Part shown: positions 44,393 to 61,069 of the stretch, piece by piece | Numbering within the stretch: the first letter of the stretch is position 1 | Layout: every line of letters starts with the position of its first letter | Assembly: GCA_044449065.1 (NCBI GenBank) | Contig: JBIOHP010000005.1 | Span: forward strand, 107,374-171,373 | DNA: 64,000 nucleotides | Source: Bacteroidota bacterium | GTDB taxonomy: Bacteria; Bacteroidota; Ignavibacteria; UBA10030; SZUA-254 | Direction of reading: 5' to 3' | Notes under the pieces: generated by a model | Seen by the model: only the letters and a program-made list of their open reading frames with translations | The model's database searches: none | Told to the model about the DNA's origin: nothing | Translations under genes and position numbers: made by a program

Positions 44393-44468
44393 AAATTATG
44401 ACCGGAAGTATAGGTTCAAGCAAGTATGGTGTTATCAACAATACGCGAGAGAAAAATAGGAGAAGTTT

Positions 44469-46598
44469 ATGATAGGTCAAAGTATTTCACACTACAAGAT
44501 TTTAGAAAAACTCGGAGAAGGCGGAATGGGGGTCGTCTATAAAGCGCAGGATTTAAAACTCGACCGTGTCGTTGCCATTAAATTTCTCCCTTCCCATCTT
44601 TCTGCTTCCGCAGACGATAAGGCGAGATTTCTGCAAGAGGCAAAAGCGACCGCAGCGTTAAATCATCCCAATATCCTCAATGTTTATGAGATTGATGAAC
44701 GGGAAGGCGGGATGTTTTTCGTTATGGAATACATAGATGGAAAGACTTTGAAATCTCATATCGCGAATCTAAAATCGGGAGATGGTATTTCTGTGAAGCA
44801 AGCTATCGACTGGACCATCCAGATTGCTCAGGGGCTAAAGGCGGCTCATGAAAAAGGCATCTTCCATCGCGACATCAAAACCGAGAACATCATGCTCACT
44901 ATGGATGGCAATCCAAAGATCATGGATTTTGGAATTGCCAAACTGAAAAATAGTACGGGTCTTACAAAGACAGGCACTTCGCTGGGAACGCTGAGTTATA
45001 TGTCGCCGGAGCAGGCGCAAGGGATGTCGGCAGATCACCGCTCGGATATTTGGGCGCTCGGCATTGTTTTTTATGAAATGTTGACGGGCGAGGTTCCCTT
45101 TAGAAGCGAGCATGAGGCAGGATTGATTTACCTAATTATGAATGAGCACGCGGTGGCGCCGAGTTCCCATGATAAGAGGATTCCACACGTAATAGATTCA
45201 TTTATGATGGAACTCCTCGAGAAAGACCGGGAACGAAGATTACAATCAATGAACGAAGTAGTTCTCCGAGTTCGCGAAATCAGCGGCGAAATTGAAAATA
45301 CAGGCAAAACCGGTAAGACGAAAGCAATTGCTCTCCTCCCCTTTGAAAATATCAGTCCCGATAAAGACAGCGATTATTTCAGCGATGGTCTTACCGAAGA
45401 ATTGATTCTAAGTTTATCACGGTTGAAAGATATACGGGTTGTTTCAAGAACAAGCACCATGCAATACAAGGGAACGCGGAAAGATATTAAGACGATTGGC
45501 AGAGAACTTGGCGCCCGGTACATCCTTGAAGGGAGCGTAAGAAAATTCCAGGACGATTTGCGAATTACGGTGCAATTAGTGGACGTCGAAACTGACGCCC
45601 AGCTCTGGGCTGCAAAATACAAAGGCAAGCTCGCGGATGTGTTTGATATTCAAGAACAAGTGTCGGAACAAATCGTTGATGCGTTAATGGTGAAATTAAC
45701 TCCGGTTGAAAAAGTCGTTCTTGCGAAACGATCCACCGATAATCCGGAAGCGTTCGATCTCAATCTCCGGGCAAGAAATTTCCTTACGCGCTATACTAAG
45801 AACGATATTAACGCTGCCATTCAACTGTTCAACCGTGCGATCGAACTGGATGTGAGATACGCCGCGGCGTATGCCGGAATGAGCGAGTCTTACGGCTCCC
45901 TCTATTTTTTTTACGAGAGAAATAATCTCTGGCTTGATAAATCCATTGAAGCAGGACTGAAAGCCCTCGCGTACGATCCCACACTCTCTGAGGCGTATGC
46001 TTCGCTGGCGCTTGCCTACTTCAATCAGAAATCTATCGATGAAGCCGTAAAGGCAGGACACAAAGCCATCGAACTTGATTCGAATAATCATATCGCTTAT
46101 TGGATTTTGGGCAGAATATATCATAGTACCGATCGTGACCGCGAGTCGGTCGGATTGTTTAAAAAAGCAATATCACTTAATCCGGAGTTCTACTCCGCCT
46201 ATGGCGATCTCCGTATGGTCTATGAGCGCCTTGGCGAGATGGACAATTGGAAGGAAACCCTGCAACAAAGCGCACAGATGTTTCCGCGTTATCTATCAAA
46301 ACACCCCGAAGATGCGCGCGCGCATATGTATTATGGTCTCACTCTCGGGATGGCTGAGCGAATCGGCGAGGCAAAACAAGAGGCGGCAAAAGCGCTTGAG
46401 CTTAACCCATCCGATCCACTCATGTTATATAACGCCACCTGCTTTTATGCCCGGCTCGGTGAAAAGCAGTTAGCGGTAAATACCTTGAAAAATGCCGTTA
46501 CCGCCGGATATGAGAATTTTGAGTGGATTAAGCGCGATCCTGACTGCGAGACTCTCCGCAACGAGCCAGGCTATCTTGAATTGATGAAAGGAAAATAA
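44469..46598 (+). CDS. Ser/Thr protein kinase K5: kinase fused directly (no TM helix) to an LPFxN-type alpha/beta module plus TPR repeats
   Basis: LGEGGMGVVYKA, HRDIKTENIM, DFGIAK. No hydrophobic segment between the kinase and AIALLPFENISPDKDSDYFSDGLTEELI. It has its own GGAG-containing upstream region rather than the shared leader. Confidence 0.88.
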   Translation: MIGQSISHYKILEKLGEGGMGVVYKAQDLKLDRVVAIKFLPSHLSASADDKARFLQEAKATAALNHPNILNVYEIDEREGGMFFVMEYIDGKTLKSHIANLKSGDGISVKQAIDWTIQIAQGLKAAHEKGIFHRDIKTENIMLTMDGNPKIMDFGIAKLKNSTGLTKTGTSLGTLSYMSPEQAQGMSADHRSDIWALGIVFYEMLTGEVPFRSEHEAGLIYLIMNEHAVAPSSHDKRIPHVIDSFMMELLEKDRERRLQSMNEVVLRVREISGEIENTGKTGKTKAIALLPFENISPDKDSDYFSDGLTEELILSLSRLKDIRVVSRTSTMQYKGTRKDIKTIGRELGARYILEGSVRKFQDDLRITVQLVDVETDAQLWAAKYKGKLADVFDIQEQVSEQIVDALMVKLTPVEKVVLAKRSTDNPEAFDLNLRARNFLTRYTKNDINAAIQLFNRAIELDVRYAAAYAGMSESYGSLYFFYERNNLWLDKSIEAGLKALAYDPTLSEAYASLALAYFNQKSIDEAVKAGHKAIELDSNNHIAYWILGRIYHSTDRDRESVGLFKKAISLNPEFYSAYGDLRMVYERLGEMDNWKETLQQSAQMFPRYLSKHPEDARAHMYYGLTLGMAERIGEAKQEAAKALELNPSDPLMLYNATCFYARLGEKQLAVNTLKNAVTAGYENFEWIKRDPDCETLRNEPGYLELMKGK

Positions 46599-46602
46599 AT
46601 AC

Positions 46603-46817
46603 GTGATAGGTCGGATAATATCACACTACGACATCATTGAAAAATCCCGCCATAAAGACGGCGGGCAAGTCGGCGAGGGCGGCATGTCCCAACATCACTC
46701 GCGAATTGTTTTTACCAGTGATTGTGATGTTGCGAATCTCCCGTTGTCTGGATTCCGCTTTGTCAACGGGATTCCAAAAAGCGGAACCGTTGAGCGAAGC
46801 GAGAACGGGAACCCACT
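46603..46817 (+). promoter_or_regulatory. kinase leader element L5 (variant A, GTG-initiated degenerate uORF)
   Basis: GTG-IGRIISHYDIIEKSRHKDGGQVGEGGMSQ..., with the stop overlapping the K6 ATG (ATGA). Confidence 0.65.
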
Positions 46818-49202
46818 ATGATTGGGCGAACAATTTCTCATTACAAAATTCTCGAGAAGCTTGGTGAAGGCGGGATGGGCATCGTCTATAAAGCCAGCGA
46901 CACGAAGCTCGACCGTATTGTCGCGCTGAAATTTTTACCCCAGCACCTGACGGAAAATGACGCTGAAAAAGCCCGCTTTATGCAGGAAGCAAAAGCTGCC
47001 GCCACATTGAACCATCCTCACGTTTGCACGATCTATCGCGTCGATGAATTCGAGGGCCAACAATTCATCGAAATGGAATACGTAGATGGTGTGACCCTTC
47101 GTCAAAAATTGCCCATTCAGAAACAAACTGACGCAATCAGTTATGCTATACAGATTGGGGACGCTCTTCAAGAAGCCCACGGCAAAGGAATTGTTCATCG
47201 CGATATCAAAGCCGAAAACATCATGATCAACTCCAAGAACCAGATCAAGGTGATGGATTTCGGTCTGGCAAAACTTAAAGGATCGATGAAGTTGACAAAA
47301 ACATCGAGCACGGTAGGAACACTTGCTTATATGGCGCCGGAACAAATTCAGGGCGGTGAAGTCGATGCGCGAAGCGACCTGTTCTCCTTCGGTATATTGA
47401 TATTCGAAATGCTGACCGGGAAAACTCCCTTCCGCGGCGAGCATGAAGCGGCGGTTCTCTATTCCATTGTTAACGAAGTTCCGGACTCAGTTCTAAAACT
47501 CAGGCCCGACCTATCTCCTGAACTTGATCGGATAATCGGACGCGCCATAGAAAAGGACCCGGAGGATCGATATCAATCAGCCGCAGATCTTGTAAGCGAG
47601 TTAAAAAGAGTCCAAAAACAATCCTCGAAAGTTTCAAGATCGATAACCCACGAGATAAAACCTCCCGTTGCTGAGGAATTTCGTCCCTCATTTTCCCAGT
47701 CGGTTCCTTCATCCCAACCTAAAAAGGGAAGCCGGATATTCATGATGACTGGAATTGTACTTGTTTGCCTGATTGCGGCAGTGATCGCATACTTTTCATT
47801 CTTTGGCAAGCATCAATCAATTGATTCAATCGCCGTGCTCCCCTTTACGAATGTGAGCGCCGACCCCAACTCAGAATACTTAAGCGACGGAATCACGGAA
47901 AGCTTAATCAACTCGCTGTCTCAATTATCCAATCTCACCGTAATGTCGAGAAGTTCTGTGTTTCATTACAAAGGGAAAGAAATCGATCCGCAGAAGGCAG
48001 GTAAAGAGTTGGGCGTGAAGGCAGTACTTACGGGCAGGGTCGCTCAACGTGGCAATAATCTCCAGATCAGCACGGAGCTTGTAAACGTTTCGAATAACAG
48101 TCATATTTGGGGCGAGCAATATAACAAAAATCTTTCCGACATACTTGCCGTGCAGGAAGAGATATCGAAAGAGATTTCTCAGCAACTGAGCGTGAAATTG
48201 GTCGGTGAAGATGAAAAAAAACTTACCAAACATTCCACGGAAAACACGGAAGCGTATCAACTCTATCTGAAAGGAAGATTTTATTGGAATAAACGCAAAG
48301 CGGACGATCTCCAAAAAGCTATCGACTATTTTAATCAGGCAATCGAGAAAGACCCCGGCTATGCGCTTGCCTATGCCGGATTGGCTTCCACCTATGCAAT
48401 CTTTCCGGAATATTCAGGATTACCGGCAAAAGACTACCTCCCAAAAACCGAAGCGGCTGCGCGGAAAGCCCTTGAACTTGACCCGACCCTCGCTGAGCCG
48501 CATGCCGCATTAGGTTTAAACAGGTATGCCCACCAATGGGATTGGAAAGGCGCCGAGCAAGAATTGAAGCAAGCAATTGAGCTTAATCCGAATTACCCAA
48601 CTGCTCATCACTGGTACTCCATTTGCCTGAGACAACAGGGCAAATTTGAGGAATCGTTAGCTGAAATACAACGCGCGCAAGAACTCGATCCTCTTTCACT
48701 TATTATCAATGTGAATGTTGCAGAGGTTCTTCTTGTCATGGAGCGCTATGATCTCGCATTAGAACAGTTTAAAAAAACGCTCGATCTGGATCCTAATTTT
48801 CCCGGAGCGCTTCAGGGTCTCGGCATTGAGTATATGCTCCAAGGCAAATATGATGAGGCAATTTCCGAGCTGCAAAAAATCAGGCAGATTATGGACCCTA
48901 ACAATCCTTTTGCGCTTGGAGATTTAGGTTATGCGTATGCGAAAGCAGGCAGGAAAGATGATGCAATCAAAACGATAAACCAATTACTTGGATTAACAAA
49001 ACGCGGCTATACACTCTCAGATCAAATCGCTCTTGTGTATGCAGGATTAGACGATAACGATAAGGCGTTTGAGTGGCTCCAGAAAGCGTATGACGAGCAA
49101 GGCATAGGTCTTGGTTATCTTAAAATTTCGAAAGCATGGGATAATCTCCATTCCGATCCGCGTTTCACAGCAATGCTGAAGAAGATAGGTTTAGTTCAAT
49201 AA
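46818..49202 (+). CDS. receptor Ser/Thr protein kinase K6: kinase, TM, alpha/beta module, TPR
   Basis: LGEGGMGIVYKA, HRDIKAENIM, DFG, TM helix IFMMTGIVLVCLIAAVIAYF, AVLPFTNVSADPNSEYLSDGITESLINSL, TPR repeats. Confidence 0.9.
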   Translation: MIGRTISHYKILEKLGEGGMGIVYKASDTKLDRIVALKFLPQHLTENDAEKARFMQEAKAAATLNHPHVCTIYRVDEFEGQQFIEMEYVDGVTLRQKLPIQKQTDAISYAIQIGDALQEAHGKGIVHRDIKAENIMINSKNQIKVMDFGLAKLKGSMKLTKTSSTVGTLAYMAPEQIQGGEVDARSDLFSFGILIFEMLTGKTPFRGEHEAAVLYSIVNEVPDSVLKLRPDLSPELDRIIGRAIEKDPEDRYQSAADLVSELKRVQKQSSKVSRSITHEIKPPVAEEFRPSFSQSVPSSQPKKGSRIFMMTGIVLVCLIAAVIAYFSFFGKHQSIDSIAVLPFTNVSADPNSEYLSDGITESLINSLSQLSNLTVMSRSSVFHYKGKEIDPQKAGKELGVKAVLTGRVAQRGNNLQISTELVNVSNNSHIWGEQYNKNLSDILAVQEEISKEISQQLSVKLVGEDEKKLTKHSTENTEAYQLYLKGRFYWNKRKADDLQKAIDYFNQAIEKDPGYALAYAGLASTYAIFPEYSGLPAKDYLPKTEAAARKALELDPTLAEPHAALGLNRYAHQWDWKGAEQELKQAIELNPNYPTAHHWYSICLRQQGKFEESLAEIQRAQELDPLSLIINVNVAEVLLVMERYDLALEQFKKTLDLDPNFPGALQGLGIEYMLQGKYDEAISELQKIRQIMDPNNPFALGDLGYAYAKAGRKDDAIKTINQLLGLTKRGYTLSDQIALVYAGLDDNDKAFEWLQKAYDEQGIGLGYLKISKAWDNLHSDPRFTAMLKKIGLVQ

Positions 49203-49247
49203 TATGAAACTCACATTATAAAAGGACAGGAATAAGCGAGGTCAACT

Positions 49248-49682
49248 ATGACAACGGTTAGAAATATCATACAAGCTAAGGGGAGCAACGTCTGGGCGAT
49301 TGGTCCCACGGCTTCCGTGTTTGAAGCCCTCAAATTGATGGCGGAAAAAAATGTTGGGGTATTACTTATCAGGGAAGGAGAAGCGGTGGTGGGGATATTA
49401 TCGGAGCGCGATTACGCCCGCAAGATTGCCCTAAAGGGATTGACTTCGCACAAGGTGTTAGTTAAAGAAATCATGACAGCGAAGGTCATATCCATCGCGC
49501 CAGAACAATCCATCGACGACTGTATGGCTATTATGCTGGAAAAACATATCCGCCATCTTCCTGTCATGGAAAACAACCTTTTAAGAGGGATCGTCTCGAT
49601 CGGCGATGTGGTTAAAGCTATTGTCGCTGAACGGGAGCAAACAATTGAACACCTGACAAACTACATAACCGGAAACCGGTAG
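49248..49682 (+). CDS. CBS-domain pair protein
   Basis: 144 aa with two CBS motifs (…GVLLIREGEAVVGILSERD… and …HLPVMENNLLRGIVSIGD…), inserted between K6 and leader L6. Confidence 0.75.
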   Translation: MTTVRNIIQAKGSNVWAIGPTASVFEALKLMAEKNVGVLLIREGEAVVGILSERDYARKIALKGLTSHKVLVKEIMTAKVISIAPEQSIDDCMAIMLEKHIRHLPVMENNLLRGIVSIGDVVKAIVAEREQTIEHLTNYITGNR

Positions 49683-49685
49683 GCA

Positions 49686-49900
49686 ATGATCGGTCAAACA
49701 ATTTCCCATTATAAGATTCTTGAAAAGCCCCGCCACAAAGACGGCGGGCAAGTCGGCGAGGGCGAAATATCCCAAAATCACCCACGCGCGTTTTTTGCAA
49801 GTGGTTGTGATTTTGCGGATCTCCCGTTGTTTGGATTTCGCTTTGACAACGGGATTCCAAAAAGCGGAACCGTTGAGCGAAGCGAGAACGGGAGCCCCCT
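49686..49900 (+). promoter_or_regulatory. kinase leader element L6 (variant A)
   Basis: uORF MIGQTISHYKILEKPRHKDGGQVGEGEISQNHPRAFFASGCDFADLPLFGFRFDNGIPKSGTVERSENGSPL, with its stop overlapping the K7 ATG. Confidence 0.7.
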
Positions 49901-52285
49901 ATGATTGGGCAGACAATATCTCATTACAAAATTCTTGAGAAATTGGGTGAGGGTGGAATGGGCATCGTCTACAAGGCAGAAGACACGCGTCTTCACCGGA
50001 TGGTGGCTATAAAGATATTGCCGACTCACCTCGCCGTTCACGGCGAGGAGCGTGAACGCTTTACCCTTGAGGCGCAAGCGGCTTCAGCGATTAACAATCC
50101 GAACATCTGTACGATTTATGAAATTGATGAAACGAACGATGATACGTTTATCGTGATGGAATATGTCGAAGGGAGTACGGTTCGCGAATGGATTCAGAAG
50201 AAACTCAGTGAAACGGAAGGATTCCGCAAGACGGGACTAACAGAAGCGATTCACCTTGCTATCCAGATTGCCGAGGGACTTGATAAGGCGCACGAAAAGG
50301 GAATCGTTCACCGCGATATTAAGTCGGAGAACGTGATGGTCACCCCGGATGGCCGCGCGAAGATCATGGATTTTGGATTGGCGAAACTTCGCGGCGTCAG
50401 TAAGCTTACAAAAGTAGGCAGCACGGTCGGAACACTTGCCTATATGTCTCCCGAGCAGATCGAAGGACTCGAAACAGACCACCGCACAGACATTTTCAGT
50501 TTCGGCGTCCTGCTCTATGAAATGATCACGGGGAAACTTCCGTTTCTCGCCGCCCACGAAGCGGCAATCATGTACGAGATCATCAATGTGGTGCCGCAGC
50601 AACCCTCGCAGGTGCGCCAGACCGTCGACTTGGAGCTCGACCGGATAGTCATGAAGTGCATGGAAAAGAATCGTGACGAACGATATCAATCGTTGAAAGA
50701 AGTTGTCGTTGATCTTCGACGATTTAGCCGAGACTCCTCAGGTAAAACGATGGCTCGTCCGGCTACCATGAGTGATCACGCCCACCAGAACAAGAGTGCT
50801 TCTTCACCACGGTCATCAAGAACGAATATTGCAGCGATTGCAGGCAGCGTAATTCTTATAAGCGCTTCACTCTCATATTACTACTTCACACACCACCCAT
50901 CCTCAATCGATTCGCTCGCAGTGCTTCCGTTCGTCAACGCCAGCCCCGATTCAAGCATGGAATATCTCAGCGATGGAATCACCGAGTCTCTCATCAATTC
51001 TCTCTCGCAACTCCCGGACTTAAAAGTGATGTCGAGGAATTCGGTTTTTCGTTATAAGGGAAGCAATGCCGATCTTCAAACGATCGGACGGGAAGTCGGC
51101 GTCCATGCGATACTATTGGGGCGCGTGTTGGAACGTGGGGATAATCTCAGCATCAGTGCCGAGCTGATCAATGTATCGGATAACAGCCATCTCTGGGGCG
51201 AGCAGTACAACAGGAAATCTGCAGACCTCCTCGCCGTTCAGGAAGAAATAACACGCGATATTTCAGATAAATTGAAGCTTCGCCTCGCCGACAAGGACGA
51301 AAAACATTCCGCCAAAGCATCAACCGAGAACACGGAAGCATACCAATTGTACCTGAAAGGTCGTTATCACTGGAACAGGCGTTCCGCCGACGAGCTCCGG
51401 AAAGCGATTGATTACTTCCAGCAGGCGGTTGAATCAGACCCAAATTATGCCCTCGCCTATTCAGGAATTGCAGATGCATACGGAGTCCTCGGGTGGTTTG
51501 AATATGGCATAGTGTCTCCGCGCGATGCGTTCCCCAAAGCCAAAGCCGCAGCGCTCAAAGCCGTGGCAATCGATCCGGGGCTGGCTGAAGGATATGCCTC
51601 TCTTGCCTTTGCGTACCAGCACGATCATGACACACTTGCCGCGTCTCAGAACTACAAACGGGCGATTGAACTTAATCCTTCATATCCGACCGCCCATCAT
51701 TGGTATTCCGAGGAGTTGATGAGCGAGGGGAAAAAGGATGAATCTATCGAAGAGATAAAGCGCGCGCTCACCCTCGATCCGCTTTCGTTGATTATTACCC
51801 GCGATGTGGGCTGGATGTATTACTTCGCCCGCCGGTACGACGAAGCGAGTGTATACATTCAAAAATCGTTGGATCTCGATTCGAATTTTTCGCGGGGCCA
51901 TCTTCTCCTTGGTCTGTGCCGCATCCAGCAGGGAGCGCTTGGCGATGCCATAACCGAATTCAAAACAGCTTCGAAATTCTCGAACGAGACTATCAGTACC
52001 GCCCTCCTTGCCTATTGTTATGCTAAAGCTGGAAAAACCACCGAGGCAAAAGATATTCTCCGGAGTATGCTTTCACTTTCCTCATCGAAGTATGTTTCGC
52101 CCGGCGCAATTGCGCTGGTCTATATGGGCCTCGGAGATCGGGAAAAGATTTTCGAGTGGCTTAACAAAGCTGTCGACGATCAATCGGGAATTTTTGGTTT
52201 TGTAAAGGTTGATCCGCTCTTTGATGGCATCAGGAATGATCCCCAATTCGTCGCATTGCTGCACAAGGGAGGGATCCCTCTATGA
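49901..52285 (+). CDS. receptor Ser/Thr protein kinase K7: kinase, TM, alpha/beta module, TPR
   Basis: LGEGGMGIVYKA, HRDIKSENVM, DFG, a TM helix, AVLPFVNASPDSSMEYLSDGITESLINSL, TPR repeats. Confidence 0.9.
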   Translation: MIGQTISHYKILEKLGEGGMGIVYKAEDTRLHRMVAIKILPTHLAVHGEERERFTLEAQAASAINNPNICTIYEIDETNDDTFIVMEYVEGSTVREWIQKKLSETEGFRKTGLTEAIHLAIQIAEGLDKAHEKGIVHRDIKSENVMVTPDGRAKIMDFGLAKLRGVSKLTKVGSTVGTLAYMSPEQIEGLETDHRTDIFSFGVLLYEMITGKLPFLAAHEAAIMYEIINVVPQQPSQVRQTVDLELDRIVMKCMEKNRDERYQSLKEVVVDLRRFSRDSSGKTMARPATMSDHAHQNKSASSPRSSRTNIAAIAGSVILISASLSYYYFTHHPSSIDSLAVLPFVNASPDSSMEYLSDGITESLINSLSQLPDLKVMSRNSVFRYKGSNADLQTIGREVGVHAILLGRVLERGDNLSISAELINVSDNSHLWGEQYNRKSADLLAVQEEITRDISDKLKLRLADKDEKHSAKASTENTEAYQLYLKGRYHWNRRSADELRKAIDYFQQAVESDPNYALAYSGIADAYGVLGWFEYGIVSPRDAFPKAKAAALKAVAIDPGLAEGYASLAFAYQHDHDTLAASQNYKRAIELNPSYPTAHHWYSEELMSEGKKDESIEEIKRALTLDPLSLIITRDVGWMYYFARRYDEASVYIQKSLDLDSNFSRGHLLLGLCRIQQGALGDAITEFKTASKFSNETISTALLAYCYAKAGKTTEAKDILRSMLSLSSSKYVSPGAIALVYMGLGDREKIFEWLNKAVDDQSGIFGFVKVDPLFDGIRNDPQFVALLHKGGIPL

Positions 52286-55005
52286 TCGGACAAACTATTT
52301 CGCATTACAAAATTCTTGAGAAGTTAGGTGAAGGCGGCATGGGCGTCGTCTATAAAGCCCAGGATACAAAACTTGATCGCTTTGTCGCGCTGAAGTTCCT
52401 CCCCTCCCAACTCAATGCCTCCGAACAGGACAAGGCGCGGTTCACGCAAGAGGCGAAATCCGCGGCAGCGCTGAACCATCCGAATGTCTGTTCGATCATC
52501 GACATACAGGAACACGATGGAACGATGTTTATCGTGATGGAGTTTGTGGATGGCCAGACCCTCCGCGACAAAATGAAGACCGCCGGAAGTGCGATTGAAG
52601 GTTCTACACTTCCCTTGAAACAGGCGATCGATATCGGAATCCAGATATCAGATGGGCTTGCTGCGGCGCATGAAAAAGGAATTGTACACCGGGACATCAA
52701 ACCGGAAAATATCATGATCCGCAAAGACGGCATCGCGCAGATTATGGATTTCGGATTGGCAAAACTTCGCGCGAGCGGCAGCAAGATAACCCGTCTTACA
52801 AAAGAAGGCAGCACGGTAGGCACAGCAGGATATATGTCGCCGGAGCAGATTCAGGGACAGGACACCGACCCCCGCTCGGATATTTTCTCTCTGGGAGCGC
52901 TGTTGTACGAACTATTTACGGGGGAATTACCCTTTAGAGGAGTTCATGAAACCGCGTTAATGTACGAAATCGTCAACGTTGACCCGGCGCCATTGTCGGC
53001 GGTGAAACCGGAAATCGATTCTTCACTCGATGCAATTGTCTTAGAGTGCCTTGCCAAATATCCCTCGGAACGGTTCCAGTCTGTCGCAGAGGTTGGCAAG
53101 GAACTGAGGAGATTCAAGCGCGAATCATCACGGCAAAAAGTTAGCAGAATAACCTCTGCCCGCCCGGCATACGTTCAATCCGCAACCATTCCGGTAATGG
53201 CGCCAACGCCTGCTCCTGTTCAGATTCAACAACAGACCCGTCTGCCCTGGATTGTGAGTGGACTCCTTTTTCTTGTTGCTGTGGCGTCAATCATTTTTCA
53301 TTTCCTTACTCCCCCTTCACATGTGGAAAATCGAGTCACGAGATCATTGATTTTACCCCCCGCGAAAACAAATTTTAATATGCAGGTCGGCGGGCACCTT
53401 GCCATCTCCCCCGATGGCAATAGCATCGCATTTGTTGGAACCGATTCCAGCGGCGTCGACCACGTTTGGGTCCGTCCAATCAATTCGTTAACGGCTATCT
53501 CGCTCTCTGGAACAGAAGGCGCAACATACCCCTTCTGGTCCCCCGACAGCCGCACAATAGGATTCTTTGCGGGCGGCAAGCTCAAGAAGATCGAAGCAAC
53601 AGGCGGACCTGTTCTTACGATCTGCGATGCTTCCGATGGGCGCGGGGGAACATGGAATGAGGCGGGCATTATCGTGTTTTCCGCTGGTCCGAGCGATCCG
53701 CTCTCCAAGGTATCATCAGCCGGAGGAATCCCGGCGAGGATAACTGTATTGGATACTTCCCACCATGAAAATAGTCACCGCTGGCCCTGGTTTCTACCCG
53801 ATGGAAAACATTTTCTCTATACGACTCAATCTCAGACGACAGGCGGAACGGATAATGACGCAATCAGAATTTCAACCATCGATTCCTCCATGAACAAAAC
53901 ATTGATCCCTGGCAATTCGAATACGTGTTTTGTTAATGGGCATATTTTATTTATCCGGCAAGGGACATTGATGGCGCAACCATTTGATCCCGGAAAACTC
54001 GAAATGACCGGTGACGCTATTCCAATCGCGGAACAAATCCAATATGGAGCGGCGCGCAGCAGGGGGATGTTTTCCTCATCGTTGAACGGAGTGCTTATTT
54101 TTCAGAGCGGCGAAAATCAAACGCAACGGGTTGCCATATTCGACCGCACCGGCAACCGGACGCATCTTGTTACCGATCTCAATGCGTCTAATCCGAAGTT
54201 TTCACCGGACCAAAGTCACATCGTCTACCATATTATTGATCCCCAGTCCCGCAACGCCGATATCTGGGTTCACGAACTTTCGAGGGGAGTGAGTTCCCGA
54301 TTAACATTTAACCCTGCGTTTGAAATACAACCGTTTTGGTCTCCTCACGGGGACACCGTTGTTTTCGGCTCCAACCGGAAGGGCGTGTACAATCTCTACA
54401 TCAAAAGCGCAAACGGTGCAGGCGATGAACAACTCATTTTGGAATCGAACCGCGACAAGTATGTCAGCGACTGGTCGCGCGATGGACGGTATTTGGCATT
54501 CACCACGACCGGAGATCCAAAAACAAAAGCTGATCTCTGGGTGCTTCCGTTTTTTGGCGACCGGAAACCGATACCTTTTGTCCAAACTGAGTTCAATGAA
54601 GGAAACGGCAGTTTTTCCCCGGATTCTCGCTGGATTGCCTATCAATCCGATGAAAGCGGAAGAAGTGAAATCTATGCCCGCTTACTCGATGGTTCCGGAG
54701 GAAAGTTCCAGATATCGACAAATGGCGGTAGAAAACCGTTCTGGAAATTAGATGGCAGGCAGCTCTTTTTCACCTCAACCGACAGAAAATTACAGGTTGC
54801 GTACATTAAGGAAAACGCATCTTCCCTTTTTGTCGACAGTGTAGCCACATTGTTTGATTTTGAATCGCGCGGTATCATAGCTAACAATATCGACGATGTT
54901 AGCAACGACGGCAAGCAAGTTCTCGCCCTAGTTACGGACTCCAAACAAACTTCGACGCCCATTACACTTGTCGTGAACTGGGACGAGGAGTTGAGGAAGA
55001 AATGA
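52282..55005 (+). CDS. receptor Ser/Thr protein kinase K8: kinase, TM, PD40 beta-propeller (no leader; its ATG overlaps the K7 stop)
   Basis: LGEGGMGVVYKA, HRDIKPENIM, DFG, TM helix LPWIVSGLLFLVAVASIIF, PD40 repeats. ATGA overlap with K7 at 52282-52285. Confidence 0.9.
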   Translation: MIGQTISHYKILEKLGEGGMGVVYKAQDTKLDRFVALKFLPSQLNASEQDKARFTQEAKSAAALNHPNVCSIIDIQEHDGTMFIVMEFVDGQTLRDKMKTAGSAIEGSTLPLKQAIDIGIQISDGLAAAHEKGIVHRDIKPENIMIRKDGIAQIMDFGLAKLRASGSKITRLTKEGSTVGTAGYMSPEQIQGQDTDPRSDIFSLGALLYELFTGELPFRGVHETALMYEIVNVDPAPLSAVKPEIDSSLDAIVLECLAKYPSERFQSVAEVGKELRRFKRESSRQKVSRITSARPAYVQSATIPVMAPTPAPVQIQQQTRLPWIVSGLLFLVAVASIIFHFLTPPSHVENRVTRSLILPPAKTNFNMQVGGHLAISPDGNSIAFVGTDSSGVDHVWVRPINSLTAISLSGTEGATYPFWSPDSRTIGFFAGGKLKKIEATGGPVLTICDASDGRGGTWNEAGIIVFSAGPSDPLSKVSSAGGIPARITVLDTSHHENSHRWPWFLPDGKHFLYTTQSQTTGGTDNDAIRISTIDSSMNKTLIPGNSNTCFVNGHILFIRQGTLMAQPFDPGKLEMTGDAIPIAEQIQYGAARSRGMFSSSLNGVLIFQSGENQTQRVAIFDRTGNRTHLVTDLNASNPKFSPDQSHIVYHIIDPQSRNADIWVHELSRGVSSRLTFNPAFEIQPFWSPHGDTVVFGSNRKGVYNLYIKSANGAGDEQLILESNRDKYVSDWSRDGRYLAFTTTGDPKTKADLWVLPFFGDRKPIPFVQTEFNEGNGSFSPDSRWIAYQSDESGRSEIYARLLDGSGGKFQISTNGGRKPFWKLDGRQLFFTSTDRKLQVAYIKENASSLFVDSVATLFDFESRGIIANNIDDVSNDGKQVLALVTDSKQTSTPITLVVNWDEELRKK

Positions 55006-55216
55006 TCGGTCAAATAATTTCACATTATAAGATTCTTGAAAAGCCCCGCCACAAAGATGGCGGGCAAGTCGGCGAAGGCGGAATGTCCCAAACTTTCCCA
55101 CAAGCGCAGCGAGTGGATGAAAGTTTGAGGATCTCCCGTTGTTTGGATTCCGCTTTGACAACGGGATTCCAAAAAGCGGAACAGCTGGAACGCAGTGGAA
55201 GCGGGAGGCGTGGACT
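55002..55216 (+). promoter_or_regulatory. kinase leader element L7 (variant B)
   Basis: The uORF ATG overlaps the K8 stop. uORF MIGQIISHYKILEKPRHKDGGQVGEGGMSQTFPQAQRVDESLRISRCLDSALTTGFQKAEQLERSGSGRRGL, with its stop overlapping the K9 ATG. Confidence 0.7.
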
Positions 55217-57589
55217 ATGATCGATCAAACGATATCTCATTACAAAATTCTTGAGAAGTTAGGTGAAGGCGGCATGGGAGTGGTCTACAAAGCTGAAGAT
55301 ACGAATCTCAAGCGCATCGTCGCCCTGAAATTCTTGCCTCATCATCTCACGACCAACGACGCAGAAGGCGCGCGGTTTATCCAAGAGGCACAGGCGGTTG
55401 CCGCGCTCAATCATCCGAACATCTGCGCGATTTATTCTTTCGGCGAGCATGAAGGCACCCACTTTATCGAGATGGAATTGGTGGAGGGAGTCACTCTGCG
55501 TCATAAGCTGCCGATCCAGAAGCAGGCCGACGCCGTGAGCTACGCAATTCAAATCGGCGAGGCACTGCAAGAAGCACACAGTAAGGGGATCGTGCACCGC
55601 GATGTTAAAGCTGAAAATATCATGACGAATACCAAGAACCAGATTAAGGTTATGGACTTTGGCTTGGCGAAGCTCAAGGGATCGTTGAAGCTCACCAAAA
55701 AGTCGAGCAGGATCGGCACGCTCGCTTATATGGCGCCTGAGCAGATTCAAGGCGGAGAAGTGGATGCGAGGAGCGACCTGTTTTCGTTCGGTATTGTGGT
55801 GTTTGAAATGCTCACGGGCAGGACGCCATTCCGCGGCGAGCACGAGGCTGCGACGATTTATTCGATCGTGAACGAGCCGCCGGAGTCACTCTTGAAACTC
55901 CGGCCGGACGTTTCGCCGGAGCTTGAGCGGATCGTTCACCGCGCAGTTGAAAAAGACCCTGAGGACAGGTATCAATCGGCCGCGGATATGGTGAGCGAAC
56001 TGCGGCGTGTGCAGAAGCAATCGACGAAAGTTTCGAGAACGATGGAGAAGGGGATTGCTCCGGCATTGACATCCGAAACGAGGCTCGGTGCAGCAGCGGC
56101 ATCGGATGTGGCGACTTCGCCGAATCGAACCCGGCAATTCATGATCGCCGGAATTGTCCTCGCGGTCATCGCCGCCGTGATCGTTGGGTATTTATTGTTC
56201 TCAACCAAGCGTCAGACAATTGACTCGCTTGCGGTTCTGCCGTTTGTCAACGTCTCGACCGATCCCGAAAAGGAATATCTCACTGAAGGCGTCACGGAAA
56301 ATATCACTAATAAACTTTCACAGTTTTCCGGACTTCGGGTCATTCCGAGGAGTTTGGTTGCGCGCTATAAAGGAGCAGACGTTGATCCCCGCGCCGCCGG
56401 TGCGGATCTGAAAGTCGGCGCAGTGTTGACGGGAAGAATTATTCAGCGCGGTGACTCACTCGATATTCAGACCGAGCTGATCGATGTGCACAATGTTTCG
56501 CAAATTTGGGGTGAGCACTATAACCGCCCATCGTCCGATTTAGTGGAGATCCAAGATGATATCATCAAGAATATTTCTGGAAAAATCAAAGGGGAAGCAA
56601 GCGCGGAAGAAAACAACCGCCTCATTCATTCCCGGGCAGTCGATCCCGAAGCGTACAAACTTTATTTGCAGGGGATGTATTTTTGGAACAAACGCTCTGC
56701 TGAAGGCAACAGAAAAGCGATCGAATATTTTGAGAACGCTGTTGGGAAAGACCCCACCTATGCGCTCGCGTATATCGGCATCGCGGACGCGTACATATTG
56801 GCGGCTGTCTTAAGCAGTCATCCTGCCGATTTTCGTGAGCGCATAAAGGCGGCGGCGTTGAAAGGGTTGGAGTTGGACAGCGCTTTGCCCGAAGCGCATG
56901 CTGCGCTGGGCGATGAACTGGCCTATTTTGAATTCGATCTTAAAGGCGCGGAACGGGAGCTTCGCCGGGCAATTACGCTCAATCCAAATTATGCGACCGG
57001 TCATCATTGGCTCGGAGAATTTCTTGTCGCCGTGGGTAAATACGACGAGGGACTTGCGGAATACCGGCGCGCAATGGAACTCGATCCGGTATCGCTCGCC
57101 ATCAGCTCCGACTACGCGTATGGCTTGTATTTTGCCCAACAATTTGACCGCTCTATCGAAGAGTTGAAAAAGATTATTGAAACCGATCCGAATTTTGTTC
57201 GCGCGCATTTCTATATCACTCTTCCGTATCTCATGAAGGGGATGCCGAAGGCAGCGTTCGACGAATTCATCAAAGGGATGGTTGCAGAGGGAGACAGCGC
57301 CGCAACAATTGCGGCGATACAACATGCTTTTGCCGTCTCCGGTTACAATGGGGTTGTAAAACTGCAGTTGGAACTAGCGGACACACTACCCATCGCTACT
57401 GCAATCTTTGACGCCGCAAGATGCTATGCCTTTCTTGGCGATAAGAATAGCGCTCTGGCGACATTGGAGAAAGAATACGAGGAAAGGCAATATAGCGCCC
57501 TAGGAATACTCGTCGAACCGATGTTTCACAATCTGCGAAAAGAACCAAGGTTTATCGCCCTGTTCAACAAGCTGGAAAACAACAAGTGA
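55217..57589 (+). CDS. receptor Ser/Thr protein kinase K9: kinase, TM, alpha/beta module, TPR
   Basis: LGEGGMGVVYKA, HRDVKAENIM, DFG, TM helix FMIAGIVLAVIAAVIVGYLLF, AVLPFVNVSTDPEKEYLTEGVTENITNKL, TPR repeats. ATG at 55217; the track ORF is TTG-extended. Confidence 0.9.
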   Translation: MIDQTISHYKILEKLGEGGMGVVYKAEDTNLKRIVALKFLPHHLTTNDAEGARFIQEAQAVAALNHPNICAIYSFGEHEGTHFIEMELVEGVTLRHKLPIQKQADAVSYAIQIGEALQEAHSKGIVHRDVKAENIMTNTKNQIKVMDFGLAKLKGSLKLTKKSSRIGTLAYMAPEQIQGGEVDARSDLFSFGIVVFEMLTGRTPFRGEHEAATIYSIVNEPPESLLKLRPDVSPELERIVHRAVEKDPEDRYQSAADMVSELRRVQKQSTKVSRTMEKGIAPALTSETRLGAAAASDVATSPNRTRQFMIAGIVLAVIAAVIVGYLLFSTKRQTIDSLAVLPFVNVSTDPEKEYLTEGVTENITNKLSQFSGLRVIPRSLVARYKGADVDPRAAGADLKVGAVLTGRIIQRGDSLDIQTELIDVHNVSQIWGEHYNRPSSDLVEIQDDIIKNISGKIKGEASAEENNRLIHSRAVDPEAYKLYLQGMYFWNKRSAEGNRKAIEYFENAVGKDPTYALAYIGIADAYILAAVLSSHPADFRERIKAAALKGLELDSALPEAHAALGDELAYFEFDLKGAERELRRAITLNPNYATGHHWLGEFLVAVGKYDEGLAEYRRAMELDPVSLAISSDYAYGLYFAQQFDRSIEELKKIIETDPNFVRAHFYITLPYLMKGMPKAAFDEFIKGMVAEGDSAATIAAIQHAFAVSGYNGVVKLQLELADTLPIATAIFDAARCYAFLGDKNSALATLEKEYEERQYSALGILVEPMFHNLRKEPRFIALFNKLENNK

Positions 57590-57623
57590 ACGGCAACATG
57601 TTTCTTCAAACGTTCCATACGCT

Positions 57624-57838
57624 ATGATGAGCCACACGATTTCCCACTACAAGCTTCTCGAGAAGCCCCGCCATAAAGACGGCGGGCAAGTCGGCGAGGG
57701 CAACATGTCCCAAACTTTCCCACGAGTGCGGCGAGTGGATGGAAGTTTGAGGATCTCCCGTTGTTTGGATTCCGCTTTGACAACGGGATTCCAAAAAGCG
57801 GAACAGCTGGAACGCAGTGGAAGCGGGAGGCGTGGACT
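57624..57838 (+). promoter_or_regulatory. kinase leader element L8 (variant B)
   Basis: uORF MMSHTISHYKLLEKPRHKDGGQVGEGNMSQTFPRVRRVDGSLRISRCLDSALTTGFQKAEQLERSGSGRRGL, with its stop overlapping the K10 ATG. Confidence 0.7.
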
Positions 57839-60520
57839 ATGATTGGGCAAACAATATCTCATTACAAAATTCTTGAGAAGTTAGGCGAGGGCGGGATGGG
57901 CGTAGTGTACAAAGCCGAAGATACCAAGCTCAAGCGGGTCGTCGCGTTGAAGTTTTTACCGGAACATCTTTCTGCATCCTCGGTGGACAAGGAAAGATTT
58001 ATCCAGGAAGCACAGGCGGCTTCAGCTCTGAATCATCCCAATGTTTGCACGATACACGACATTCAGGAACACGATGGAAAAATGTTCATTGTTATGGAAT
58101 TCGTTGACGGGCAAACACTACGGCAAAAGAAGGATTCAATATCCCAGAAACAAGCAATTGAAATTGGAATTCAGATTGCCGATGGTCTTGCCGCCGCGCA
58201 TGAAAAAGGAATTGTTCACCGCGATATCAAGCCCGAAAACATTATGATACGAAAAGATGGCTCTGCCCAGATCATGGATTTCGGACTGGCAAAACTCAGA
58301 GCAAGCGGGAGTAAAATTACCCGCCTTACAAAGGAAGGCAGCACAGTCGGAACCGCGGGCTATATGTCGCCGGAACAGGTACAAGGACATGAAGTTGATC
58401 ATCGCTCTGATATTTTTTCTTTCGGTGTTTTGCTCTATGAACTGATAGCAGGTCAGCTTCCATTCAGGGGCGTGCATGAAACAGCGTTGATGTACGAGAT
58501 TGTCAATGTCGATCCTGCGCCAATTTCAACGATTAAACCGGAAATTGATCCCAACCTCGATAGTATAATTCTTGATTGCCTTGAGAAAGACCCTAAAGAA
58601 CGCTGCCAATCAGTTGCCGAAGTTGCCAGGGATCTCCGCCGGATAAAGCGTGAATCGAGCCGGCAGCGCGCCAGCCGCATAACTTCAGTACGACCAATTT
58701 CGCCCAAACAAACGCCTATAGTTACGCCTTCTGCCGCGATGCAAACGAAACGCCAGATAGTGTGGCCCCTGCTCTGCGGTATCCTGGGTGTTGCTCTCCT
58801 CGCATCGATCTGGATTCTGGTGAGTAGAGGGAAATCGTCACATCCCATTATACGGTTGGGAATAACATTACCGAAGGGCGAATCGGTGGAGTCGCAATAT
58901 TTCTCGGCTATTGCAATTTCTCCGGATGGTACGCAAATTGTTTATAGGACGAATGGGAGATTGTATAAGCGAAGCATGGATAGCTTCACTCCGGAAGCTA
59001 TTCCCGGCACAGAGAACAGTGAAAATCCATTCTTCTCTCCCAACGGTAAATGGATCGGTTTTTTCTCAGACGGGAAACTTAAAAAGGTATCGTTAAGCGG
59101 AGGGACACCGTTGGACGTGACCGATCAAATGGGAAATCGCGGCGCGGTCTGGACGAAGGATGGAAAAATCATTTTTGCACCCACAGCGCGGCAAGGGCTT
59201 TTTTGCATCAATGAGGACGGCAGCGACCGCCGGCAGCTTACCACTGTTGATAGCACGAAGAATGAGCGCACTCATCGGTGGCCCCAGATCATGCCCGATG
59301 GAAAAACCATATTGTTTACCATAGGCACAATGGACAGCCCCGATTATTATGAGGACGCAACGATAGGCGCTGTAAACATCGAAACCGGTGAGCGGAAAGT
59401 TGTCATGAAAGGAGCGAGCACGACCTACTATCTGGGCACCGGAGATCTTCTCTATTCACATGCAGGGATTTTGTTCGCTGTGCCATTCGATTCTAAGAAC
59501 ATTGAAGTCAAAGGAACCGCATTCGCGGTGCTGGACAATGTCTCCGGCGACCCGACAACAGGAGCAACCAATTATTCAATTTCCGATAATGGAACGCTTG
59601 CATATGTTCCGGGTTCAACAAATCTTCTCAATCGAACCCTGGCTCTTATCGATCGAAATGGAACAACTTCCATTCTCCCGGCTCCGAGCCAGAATTATAT
59701 GGAACCACGCATCTCTCCGGATGGTAAACAGGTTGCCGTGGTTATCGGGTCTGCAAAAGATTACGATATCTGGCTGTATGATATGCAACGACATACGATG
59801 AGCCGATTTACCTTCGGGGGAATTAACCGTTCTCCTGTTTGGTCGCCCGATAGCAAGCGCATCGCGTATTCATACAATGAAACCGGAAATCGGAAAATTA
59901 TCATCCGACAAGCGGACGGCGGCGGGACGCCTGAAGAAATTAAAATGACCTATGATCGAACCTATGTACTGTGCTGGTCGCGGGACGGTTCGTCGATTAT
60001 CTTTAATGGGATCCGCGCTTCTACAGGGTACGATATACTTGTTCTTCCCGTAAGGGGAAATCACCAGCCATGGGCTTTTCTTGATACTCGGTTCGATGAA
60101 CGGGAAGCGTCCCTTTCACCCGATGGCAGATGGATCGCCTTTACCTCAAATGAGACCGGCTCACAACAAATTTACGTTCGACCGTTTCCCCATGGCAACG
60201 GAAAATGGCAGATCTCAACCGATCAGGGAGGAGATGCAAATTGGTCACCGGATGGGAAAACGCTCTTTTATCAAAGTCAATCCGAGCTTAGGGCTGTTTC
60301 GATCATCGGCACTACCTCGTTGGTTGTTGGAGAATCAAAAGTTCTTGTGAGAGATTTTCAGAGAATCTTTGTGGAAAGCGGAATTAATTACGATCCCACT
60401 CCGGATGGGAAATATTTTCTATGCACGAAACCTGCAGAAGGGGATGATATGCTGCGACAGATCAATATAGTGTTAAACTGGTTCGATGAAATTCAATTAA
60501 AGGCAGGCGCAAACAAATGA
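57839..60520 (+). CDS. receptor Ser/Thr protein kinase K10: kinase, TM, PD40 beta-propeller
   Basis: LGEGGMGVVYKA, HRDIKPENIM, DFG, TM helix IVWPLLCGILGVALLASIWILV, PD40 repeats (SPDG motifs), 893 aa from the ATG at 57839. Confidence 0.9.
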   Translation: MIGQTISHYKILEKLGEGGMGVVYKAEDTKLKRVVALKFLPEHLSASSVDKERFIQEAQAASALNHPNVCTIHDIQEHDGKMFIVMEFVDGQTLRQKKDSISQKQAIEIGIQIADGLAAAHEKGIVHRDIKPENIMIRKDGSAQIMDFGLAKLRASGSKITRLTKEGSTVGTAGYMSPEQVQGHEVDHRSDIFSFGVLLYELIAGQLPFRGVHETALMYEIVNVDPAPISTIKPEIDPNLDSIILDCLEKDPKERCQSVAEVARDLRRIKRESSRQRASRITSVRPISPKQTPIVTPSAAMQTKRQIVWPLLCGILGVALLASIWILVSRGKSSHPIIRLGITLPKGESVESQYFSAIAISPDGTQIVYRTNGRLYKRSMDSFTPEAIPGTENSENPFFSPNGKWIGFFSDGKLKKVSLSGGTPLDVTDQMGNRGAVWTKDGKIIFAPTARQGLFCINEDGSDRRQLTTVDSTKNERTHRWPQIMPDGKTILFTIGTMDSPDYYEDATIGAVNIETGERKVVMKGASTTYYLGTGDLLYSHAGILFAVPFDSKNIEVKGTAFAVLDNVSGDPTTGATNYSISDNGTLAYVPGSTNLLNRTLALIDRNGTTSILPAPSQNYMEPRISPDGKQVAVVIGSAKDYDIWLYDMQRHTMSRFTFGGINRSPVWSPDSKRIAYSYNETGNRKIIIRQADGGGTPEEIKMTYDRTYVLCWSRDGSSIIFNGIRASTGYDILVLPVRGNHQPWAFLDTRFDEREASLSPDGRWIAFTSNETGSQQIYVRPFPHGNGKWQISTDQGGDANWSPDGKTLFYQSQSELRAVSIIGTTSLVVGESKVLVRDFQRIFVESGINYDPTPDGKYFLCTKPAEGDDMLRQINIVLNWFDEIQLKAGANK

Positions 60521-60658
60521 TAGGGCTCTGTGATATACAGCATAATGGAGTAACAAAAATATATTTAATATATTATTATAAACAGAGACCATATTGGTTG
60601 ACAATGAGCGTTCAACATGACAAAATGAGAAATATCAGAGAAAAGGATCGGTGATGCT

Positions 60659-61003
60659 ATGCCTTACGGACATCAACTTTTAACTCTCATCAAGCAATCG
60701 GATACCATGGATCGTGTTTGCAAAGATCGGCTGCAATCAGGCGATTGGATGCTCATCCAAACCCGGAATTCACGCTACTCTATTCATATTGGCGGCGATG
60801 GCTGGTGTGAGATATCAGGGGGATGGTTCGATAGGAAGGGAAAATCACACGCGAGAGTTCGGATAAACGGATGCACCTGGGGCGGCTCGGCGATCAATTT
60901 ACAGGTTGCGGCTGCGTGCGGACTTTGCATTGAATTCAGCAACCGCGTTGTAACAAGTCCCATACAACGGATAATTTTCTTTCCCGGGTTCACGATGAAT
61001 TAA
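60659..61003 (+). CDS. hypothetical small protein (114 aa)
   Basis: Clean ATG ORF with a strong terminator immediately after it (61034-61069). No recognisable motif. Confidence 0.45.
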   Translation: MPYGHQLLTLIKQSDTMDRVCKDRLQSGDWMLIQTRNSRYSIHIGGDGWCEISGGWFDRKGKSHARVRINGCTWGGSAINLQVAAACGLCIEFSNRVVTSPIQRIIFFPGFTMN

Positions 61004-61033
61004 GTTCAATAGAAGAAAATCGATGAAATGAAT

Positions 61034-61069
61034 ATGAAAAGCCGGAAGATATCCGGCTTTTCATATTTT
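61034..61069 (+). terminator. rho-independent terminator
   Basis: ATGAAAAGCCGGA-agat-ATCCGGCTTTTCAT stem of about 13 bp, followed by ATTTTA. Confidence 0.75.

Follow-up and report, generated by a model that had tools for sequence, protein, structure and literature searches.

A leaderless overlap junction and a family of candidate relay leaders in a bacterial serine/threonine kinase gene array

Introduction

Translational coupling through overlapping stop and start codons (ATGA, TGATG) is known in bacterial operons, for example at E. coli trpE-trpD and trpB-trpA. Short upstream open reading frames (uORFs) act on the genes that follow them by leader-peptide translation attenuation, as at ermC, cat and cmlA, or as arrest-peptide sensors, as at secM-secA and mifM-yidC2. 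Intergenic repeats such as the ERIC/IRU, REP/BIME and Correia elements are also found inside operons, and tandem repeat units change copy number by unequal recombination or replication slippage. Here we describe an array of ten paralogous Ser/Thr kinase genes (K1–K10), all on one strand, which occupies positions 33286–60520 of a 64-kb stretch of contig JBIOHP010000005.1 (hereafter the window) in its list of open reading frames (ORFs). All but two of the kinases (K5 and K8) have a leader of 191–215 nucleotides (nt) directly upstream, and these eight leaders are named L1, L2, L3, L4, L6, L7, L9 and L10 after the kinase that follows; related loci in other genomes carry three-digit labels (L001 and so on). 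An earlier interpretation made from the letters of this DNA (the sequence-only reading) had proposed that leaders come and go by recombination between flanking direct repeats, and that the leaderless junction between K7 and K8 is the outcome of such a deletion.

We conclude instead, with a probability that we put at roughly 0.6, that K7/K8 is an ordinary translationally coupled junction, most likely inherited and not a recent product of recombination, and that the leaders are functional, translated relay uORFs. The leaders are best called a variant form of uORF-mediated translational coupling that is apparently undescribed.

The K7/K8 junction

The K8 ATG (52282–52284) overlaps the K7 TGA (52283–52285) in a 4-nt ATGA at 52282–52285, with zero spacer and no leader, exactly as the sequence-only reading had it. 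A Shine-Dalgarno (SD)-like match, GGGAGGG (52267–52273, plus strand), lies within the last K7 codons, 9 nt 5' of the K8 ATG, where it would serve K8 initiation. K7/K8 thus shows the two features by which overlapping stop/start pairs are recognized, a same-strand overlap and an SD-like match inside the upstream ORF, and translation of the two genes is probably coupled. The same features are those of trpE-trpD and trpB-trpA, from which K7/K8 itself does not differ. Such junctions are not rare in this gene family. We gathered 86 related loci by a K8 search of GTDB genomes and by look-ups of K7 and K8 homologues; over the 238 non-redundant kinase starts in the window and 85 related loci, a leaderless ATGA overlap is found at 22 and a leader at 53. 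A leader or an overlap is not the sole junction pattern in the window either, because the leaderless K5 has an ordinary 76-nt spacer with an AGGAG SD.

Orthologues of K8 bear directly on the origin of the junction. The closest, in L083 (80% identity, 34-nt spacer) and L085 (77%, ATGA overlap with a K4-like kinase), are leaderless, as are those in L004 (70%, 9-nt spacer), L005 (67%, a stand-alone gene) and L006 (65%, 6-nt spacer); a short-class leader precedes the orthologue in L084 (77%) and a degenerate, window-like leader the one in L086 (71%). The covariance model R1, built for the conserved leader hairpin described below, did not detect that hairpin 5' of the K8 orthologues in L083 and L085, and it does match 5' of the K1-like and K4-like genes of L085, as it does in the window. 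Leader state therefore agrees between the window and L085 at K1 (present in both), K4 (present in both) and K8 (absent in both). Since the leaderless state is common to K8 and its nearest orthologues, the junction was most likely inherited in this form, and an older loss of a leader at this place is possible. The comparison of junctions among relatives that the sequence-only reading had called for cuts both ways, in that leader presence does differ between orthologues while the closest orthologues of K8 have none.

The 5' end of K8 is composite in its similarities. Nucleotides 1–21 match L005, L085 and L086 at 19–20 of 21 positions and the kinases of the same genome at 14–17 of 21, with a third-position identity of 0.25 to the homogenized in-genome kinase starts; nucleotides 22–63 are identical to K9 at 41 of 42 positions and to the L085 orthologue at 38 of 42. 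Comparison with distant orthologues had favoured a recent chimeric origin of this end, part leader copy and part kinase start; the L085 matches (19/21 and 38/42) weakened that idea. We also considered the end of the K7 gene (GGGAG..CCC.CTATGA) as the remnant of a leader 3' end; the closest K7 homologues (59–60% identity, L081 and L082) have a tail of equal length and other sequence, by eye, and this candidate was set aside.

Gene order in these arrays is not conserved. L085 reads K1-like gene, leader, K4-like gene, ATGA, K8-like gene and three K5-like genes, and the window differs in order from both L083 and L085. Whole kinase units appear to have been shuffled, duplicated or lost between arrays.

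Anatomy and reading frames of the leaders

The window leaders align with 86% mean column identity and form two variants, A (L1, L3, L6, L7) and B (L2, L4, L9, L10). Leaders of the same variant are mostly 95–99% identical (86–88% in pairs with L6), compared with 29–82% for the kinase bodies, and the A/B type does not track kinase phylogeny. At its 5' end each leader repeats the start of the kinase coding sequence (MIG.TISHYKILEK...). This is the repeat that the sequence-only reading had described as a 45–60-nt near-match flanking every leader. The copy is real, with 27–34 of 43 nt matching the leader's own kinase against 10.8 ± 2.9 for random pairs from the window, but identity is only 63–79%, the longest exact runs are 5–13 nt, and 7 of 8 leaders have an in-frame GC hairpin of 24 nt inserted within the homologous stretch. 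The copy is no nearer to its own kinase than to the others (mean 0.71 vs 0.73). In its strict form, CCCGCC-N8-GGCGGG, the insert hairpin occurs in six leaders and nowhere else in the window; L1 has CCAGCC and L2 has no insert. Together with a following CAAG, it replaces a Leu with PRHKDGGQV, and this peptide insert recurs in leader ORFs of other metagenomes, where shorter (PPTSSGQV) and longer forms of it are also found. Many metagenomes contain similar small ORFs, as a search with the L7 peptide showed. In the L1 region (33030–33100) the 5' copy is disrupted: past a ATGGTCGGCCAAA start come an insertion of ~22 nt, which contains a small TCCC-GAA-GGGA hairpin, and an early stop; the long uORF opens at the GTG at 33080.

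All eight window leaders are open uORFs of 64–72 codons that end in the ATGA of the kinase start. Across the window and related loci, 45 uORFs have a recognizable kinase-like N-terminus; 35 of these end exactly in the kinase ATGA, 42 end within 12 nt of the kinase start, and leader length is 2 mod 3 in 38. Variants A and B differ by indels of −4, +1 and +3, so that each reads the conserved core in a frame of its own, and L2 has lost 24 nt; all eight uORFs nevertheless keep the ATGA end. What is conserved in the leaders is nucleotides rather than peptide, with only the kinase-like N-terminus recurring. Because the window uORFs start close to the upstream stop (−4 to +34 nt) and themselves stop on the kinase ATG, the layout suggests serial termination and re-initiation, from kinase to uORF to the next kinase. 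The leader uORFs overlap the kinase start in the way of trpE-trpD and trpB-trpA, and three also overlap the upstream stop; they depart from that type in that a non-conserved peptide is laid over conserved RNA structure and copies the downstream N-terminus. As a practical matter of annotation, the 45–72-codon "hypothetical proteins" at such positions are leader uORFs and not genes.

A parallel exists in cbrX-cbrA of Pseudomonas putida, where a small upstream ORF is translationally coupled to a sensor kinase gene (PMC6591292). The likeness lies in a small upstream ORF coupled to a signalling kinase; cbrA differs in encoding a histidine kinase at a single locus, and the abstract of that report describes no structured core, N-terminus copy or multi-copy family.

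Programmed frameshifting at the pseudoknot-like middle domain of the leaders (see below) was considered and rejected: by eye, no canonical slippery heptamer lies upstream, and frameshifting is not needed, because variants A and B are each open in their own frame. A scan of 44000–61500 placed no plus-strand terminator-like site inside a leader, and sigma-70 promoter-like and terminator sites occurred at about the shuffled expectation.

RNA structure of the leaders

The conserved element that we have termed hairpin 1 is 55 nt long and consists of TCCC, an 8-bp stem, CCAC, a mostly conserved G-A/A-G-type mismatch loop, and a short stem and loop. Window copies match R1 at 62–76 bits, and the hairpin is also present in minimum free energy (MFE) folds. 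Compensatory changes are found at 13 of 17 pairs over 33 distinct sequences (11 of 17 in the seed), and the hairpin is 95.7% paired; this percentage is somewhat favoured because the structure was derived from the same sequences. The compensatory counts are the stronger evidence. No shuffle reached the observed values, and slid controls were 31–47% paired. At E < 0.01, R1 has 55 matches, all in the sense orientation and each 26–232 nt upstream of a kinase ATG where the start falls inside the locus, with none elsewhere in the window. G-U pairs in hairpin 1 form on the sense strand only, which argues for a role at the RNA level.

Downstream of hairpin 1 lies a middle domain with the topology of an H-type pseudoknot, present in 8 of 8 window leaders and in L014 (near 5030–5080, 12800–12850 and 17390–17440). 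Its outer stem (CCCGYTK/MARCGGG) covaries, reading CCCGTTG/CAACGGG in the window and CCCGCTT/AAGCGGG in L014; the second stem, TTCCGC with a downstream GCGGAA, is unproven because it is invariant. The L7 leader carries a matched change some 75 nt apart, GCGAAAT at 49758–49764 and ATTTCGC at 49835–49841, where most other leaders have GCGG(A/C)AT and all others ATTCCGC. This is a possible compensation for a long-range pairing that would enclose hairpin 1.

In relatives, a last hairpin, TCC(C)GCY...RGC(G)GGA, stands 3' of hairpin 1. It forms in 22 of 22 single-sequence folds at −11 to −26 kcal/mol, and in all 22 its 3' arm holds the first G's of GGAGG/GGGAG. The relatives also contain a second leader class of 92–137 nt, which is without hairpin 1 and has a hairpin in which the glycine-loop codons, GGCGGAC, pair with their complement, GTCCGCC. 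An L001 leader has its glycine-loop codons paired, in the MFE fold, with the 5' arm of the last hairpin; together with the matched L7 change this hints, on thin evidence, at alternative leader folds through these codons and the downstream complement. When L9 and the K9 start (54996–55240) are folded together, the MFE structure joins the uORF start, UGAUCGGUCA, to the start region of the kinase, GAUCGAUCA, by way of a GAUC palindrome present in both, a predicted pairing that could be chance.

The family appears in neither of the places where it was sought. Rfam 15 has no match to the leaders (searched at gathering score over the whole window, where the only hit is a tRNA, and at E up to 5 over 32900–61000, where there is none), and full-text literature searches returned no description of it. 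Of the Ser/Thr kinase genes of this family sampled in Ignavibacteria-type genomes, about one in five has a structured, probably translated leader, a kind of element that is absent from Rfam and the literature searched.

Gain, loss and copy number in relatives

The general part of the sequence-only proposal, that leaders are gained and lost by recombination, fared well in related genomes. Three tandem 140-nt leader units precede a K7-like gene in L081, units 1 and 2 being identical at 139 of 140 positions; L082 also has three tandem units; and L084 has three units of 134 nt, of which units 2 and 3 agree at 132 of 134 positions and have a 5' copy identical to the real kinase start over 56 of 56 nt. 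Leader doublets occur in L001, L074, L026 and L050. Orthologues differ as well: K5 is leaderless in the window, and its 87–88% orthologues in L081 and L082 carry a leader (one long, one shortened), just as K8 is leaderless and its orthologues in L084 and L086 are not. Where the 3' ends of K7-like genes are near-identical in L081 and L082, the ATGATCAATCAAAC start that comes next belongs to a leader uORF in the former and to a kinase ORF in the latter. These observations support a change of leader number in relatives by recombination between the flanking repeats, a mechanism that we infer from sequence comparison. The leader units, bracketed by direct repeats and present at 0, 1, 2 or 3 copies with near-identical neighbours in related genomes, resemble tandem repeats of changing copy number in this respect.

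The exchanged or homogenized unit would include the first 40–60 nt of the kinase, because synonymous-site identity among the leader-preceded window kinases is high there (0.72–0.79 at nt 1–42) and then decays to ~0.3 beyond nt 85. Long, near-perfect direct repeats of the kind that mark phase-variable loci are found in the relatives L084 and L081 and are lacking in the window, where the repeats are 63–79% identical. RecA-dependent exchange needs roughly 20–30 bp of identity, so the window repeats, with exact runs of just 5–13 nt, are poor substrates for it and in this depart from tandem repeats that recombine efficiently. Slippage between such short repeats is possible but should be rare. The suggestion that leader content in this array varies at present between cells or strains is therefore not borne out by the repeats, nor by the leader state shared with L085 at K1, K4 and K8.

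Explanations based on integron attC sites, shufflons or diversity-generating retroelements were considered and set aside, there being no recombinase or reverse transcriptase nearby and all units being in direct orientation. In L082 (8466–9200), a truncated kinase 5' fragment (ATGATCGGACAGAC...GGGGGGATGGGCATCGTTTAG) lies directly past the K5 orthologue and is followed by an IS200-type Y1 transposase gene and then by the triple leader; one member of this array may have been disrupted by an insertion sequence.

Proposed mechanism and alternative explanations

From the observed anatomy, covariation, phasing, distribution and copy-number change, we hypothesize that each leader is a translated relay uORF. 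It would start at or just past the upstream stop with a copy of the first kinase codons, run through structured RNA (hairpin 1, the pseudoknot-like domain in this genome, and the last hairpin), and end in the kinase ATGA. Ribosomes finishing the upstream ORF would re-initiate on the uORF, to which the 5' copy would give the same initiation region as the kinase; in translating it they would melt structure that otherwise occludes the kinase start region, and the same ribosomes would then re-initiate on the kinase. Hairpin 1, with its mostly conserved internal loop, could be the gate, with a trans factor or the stability of the fold setting translational throughput, and K7/K8 would be the same relay without the spacer. 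Over evolutionary time, unequal recombination or slippage may duplicate or delete leader units, because copies of the conserved kinase 5' end lie on both sides of each unit. Under this proposal, the leaders are functional cis elements and not debris, of a recurrent and apparently undescribed kind. If the relay or gate is real, long arrays of paralogous sensor kinases would have in it a general translational means of adjusting their stoichiometry. The leaders would also offer a natural case, and a clean one, in which the conserved coding ends of a gene family let cis-regulatory modules be gained, lost and multiplied. The K7/K8 junction itself is ordinary; of more interest is the family of leaders that surrounds it.

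Several observations weigh against this reading of the junction and the leaders. The K8 orthologues in L084 and L086 carry leaders, the latter resembling a degenerate leader of the window type, so the K8 ancestor may have had a leader that was later lost. The near-identity of K8 nt 22–63 to K9 could likewise stem from a crossover or a short conversion tract. In window variant A the SD-like sequence is weak (GGGA), and in variant B the last hairpin is poorly defined; the evidence for that hairpin is single-sequence folding plus stem variants seen in the sequences, and RNAalifold, run on a plain MAFFT alignment, failed on the differing loop lengths. Finally, the frequencies of leaders and junctions do not come from an unbiased sample, because the loci were gathered through K8/K7 homology and leader-peptide matches. 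The first two points lead to the account nearest to the sequence-only reading, in which K8 once had a leader with its uORF ATG on the K7 stop, and recombination or slippage between the 5' copy and the K8 5' end deleted it precisely. We consider this somewhat unlikely. Its geometry works for an ancient loss, since the uORF ATGs of L2, L4 and L9 overlap the upstream stop and a precise deletion there would leave a K8-type junction; the same deletion at L3, L6, L7 and L10, whose uORFs start 18, 4, 3 and 34 nt past the stop, would leave none, so the general rule that had been claimed holds for some leaders only. Relatives do show units gained and lost by way of these repeats, a missing scar is uninformative because deletion between perfect repeats such as those of L084 leaves none, and the K8 5' end has its mosaic look, unlike in-genome starts over nt 1–21 and nearly identical to K9 over nt 22–63. 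That look can be explained by vertical descent, however, because nt 1–63 are nearly as similar to L085, whose first 21 nt K8 largely shares; crossover, short conversion tract and plain descent would not be distinguishable from the K8 5' end. ATGA junctions are common irrespective of leaders, the closest orthologues of K8 are leaderless and one has the identical ATGA overlap, and the exact runs in the window repeats are short. Any loss of a K8 leader would predate the split of L083 and L085, and so gives no evidence of current variability. On these grounds we do not take the K7/K8 junction to be the product of a recent leader deletion.

The leaders themselves could be selfish or neutral DNA, either partial tandem duplications of kinase 5' ends or a homing insertion resembling a miniature inverted-repeat transposable element (MITE), spread by gene conversion and tolerated without a regulatory role as long as downstream translation is kept. 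The units do multiply in tandem, the 5' copy ranges from ~12 to ~90 nt, GC-rich mini-hairpins are inserted at variable places, and the high identity of same-variant leaders irrespective of kinase phylogeny fits concerted evolution or spread. The leaders resemble ERIC/IRU, REP/BIME and Correia elements in that they lie between genes, are transcribed, form hairpins and recur many times in a genome. They differ from these elements in being tied to one gene family, always sense and phased as ORFs with ATGA ends, and from MITE, REP and ERIC elements in that their ends are direct copies of kinase 5' coding sequence, with neither varied contexts nor both orientations (55 of 55 hairpin-1 matches are sense). 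No terminal inverted repeats or transposon-type target-site duplications were seen in them. Since hairpin 1 pairing has been kept by compensatory changes across many genomes, uORF phase and the ATGA end have been kept in 78% despite indels, and leader presence agrees between the window and L085 for K1 and K4, we judge a selfish or neutral origin very unlikely. We give as little credence to the idea that the leaders are classical leader-peptide attenuators or riboswitches, in which stalling on a sensor peptide, or a ligand bound at hairpin 1, would switch an SD-sequestering hairpin. As in the erm and cat attenuators, a short uORF lies 5' of a start region that may be partly sequestered in a hairpin, in relatives with SD-like G's in its 3' arm, and its translation is expected to remodel the structure; the glycine-loop pairing in the L001 fold, the matched change in L7 (GCGAAAT/ATTTCGC vs GCGGAAT/ATTCCGC elsewhere) and the mostly conserved mismatch loop of hairpin 1 could be taken in the same sense. 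The leader uORF, however, does not end before or in the first stem but reads through every hairpin to the main ATG, with no stop ahead of the switch. Beyond the kinase-like N-terminus, its peptide is not conserved, A and B being in different frames, so that the conserved part mimics the kinase and there is no conserved arrest peptide of the kind found in erm/cat and arrest-peptide systems. The element also occurs in 0–3 tandem copies, unlike erm/cat attenuators, Rfam has no match for it even at E up to 5, and a single long hairpin is an unlikely ligand pocket.

A more far-reaching version of the relay proposal would make the leaders self-propagating modules that bring a replacement copy of the first ~45–60 nt of the kinase, spread among paralogous kinase genes by gene conversion through their 5' homology arms, and stack in 0–3 copies to set the flow of translation between successive kinases, with hairpin 1 docking a trans regulator possibly linked to signalling by the neighbouring GAF-PP2C phosphatase and the kinases, and K7/K8 as the ungated state. 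We offer this version as a speculation that we consider rather unlikely.

The kinase array and its surroundings

The coordinates of the array and its leaders are collected in Table 1. The kinase domains of the PD40 group (K1, K2, K3, K8, K10) are 75–82% identical and those of the TPR group (K4, K6, K9) 75–80%, with K5 and K7 as outliers. The paralogues are old, because their sensor domains share just 25–52% identity.

Table 1. Features of the kinase array in the window
Feature	Position	Strand	Basis or remark
K1	33286–36015	+	ORF list
K2	36203–38899	+	ORF list
K3	39133–41805	+	ORF list
K4	42017–44392	+	ORF list
K5	44469–46598	+	ORF list; leaderless
K6	46818–49202	+	ORF list
K7, Ser/Thr protein kinase, C-terminal TPR domain, 794 aa	49901–52285	+	ORF list; Pfam Pkinase 4e-53, TPR families
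K8, Ser/Thr protein kinase, C-terminal PD40 beta-propeller, 907 aa	52282–55005	+	ORF list; Pfam Pkinase 2e-54, PD40; orthologues 65–80% identity; leaderless
K9	55217–57589	+	ORF list
K10	57839–60520	+	ORF list
L1	33080–33285	+	Variant A; 5' of K1; GTG start; 5' kinase copy truncated or disrupted
L2	36012–36202	+	Variant B; without 24-nt GC hairpin insert; uORF ATG overlaps K1 stop
L3	38918–39132	+	Variant A
L4	41802–42016	+	Variant B; uORF ATG overlaps K3 stop
L6	46603–46817	+	Variant A; most diverged copy; GTG start 4 nt past K5 stop
L7	49686–49900	+	Variant A; 72-codon uORF 49686–49904 ending in ATGA of K7 start
L9	55002–55216	+	Variant B; uORF ATG overlaps K8 stop (ATGA), uORF stop overlaps K9 ATG (ATGA)
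L10	57624–57838	+	Variant B
K5 5' spacer	44393–44468	+	Ordinary, 76 nt; AGGAG SD 44458–44462; no leader
Hairpin 1 of L7	49767–49821	+	Covariance model R1, covariation, MFE folds
Hairpin 1, other copies	33152–33206, 36069–36119, 38999–39053, 41883–41933, 46684–46738, 55083–55133, 57705–57755	+	Covariance model R1
Middle domain of L7, H-type pseudoknot topology	49822–49870	+	CCCGTTG/CAACGGG crossed by TT(C/T)CGC/GCGGAA
GC hairpin insert	38961–38980, 41845–41864, 46646–46665, 49729–49748, 55045–55064, 57667–57686		CCCGCC-N8-GGCGGG

The source contig is part of a metagenome-assembled genome labelled "Bacteroidota bacterium", and the relatives are assembled genomes of Ignavibacteria and Kryptoniota type. 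In a search of 5.8 billion proteins, the best non-self homologue of K7 has 62% identity, and the databases searched hold no same-species sequence with which to compare the array.

A gene for a CBS-domain protein (49248–49682, 144 aa) stands between K6 and L7 and is the sole non-kinase gene within the array; the L7 uORF starts 3 nt past its stop. Immediately 5' of the array are a gene for a GAF-SpoIIE protein (a PP2C-type phosphatase; 30223–31509) and an ABM-domain gene (32142–32900). In L084, a GAF-SpoIIE gene lies directly 5' of the first leader triplet and an ABM gene 3' of the array, and a SpoIIE gene lies 5' of P0165, a 74% homologue of K8. It seems likely that the phosphatase is a conserved partner of these kinase arrays. 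The tRNA gene that is the single Rfam gathering-score match in the window is at 10058–10130.

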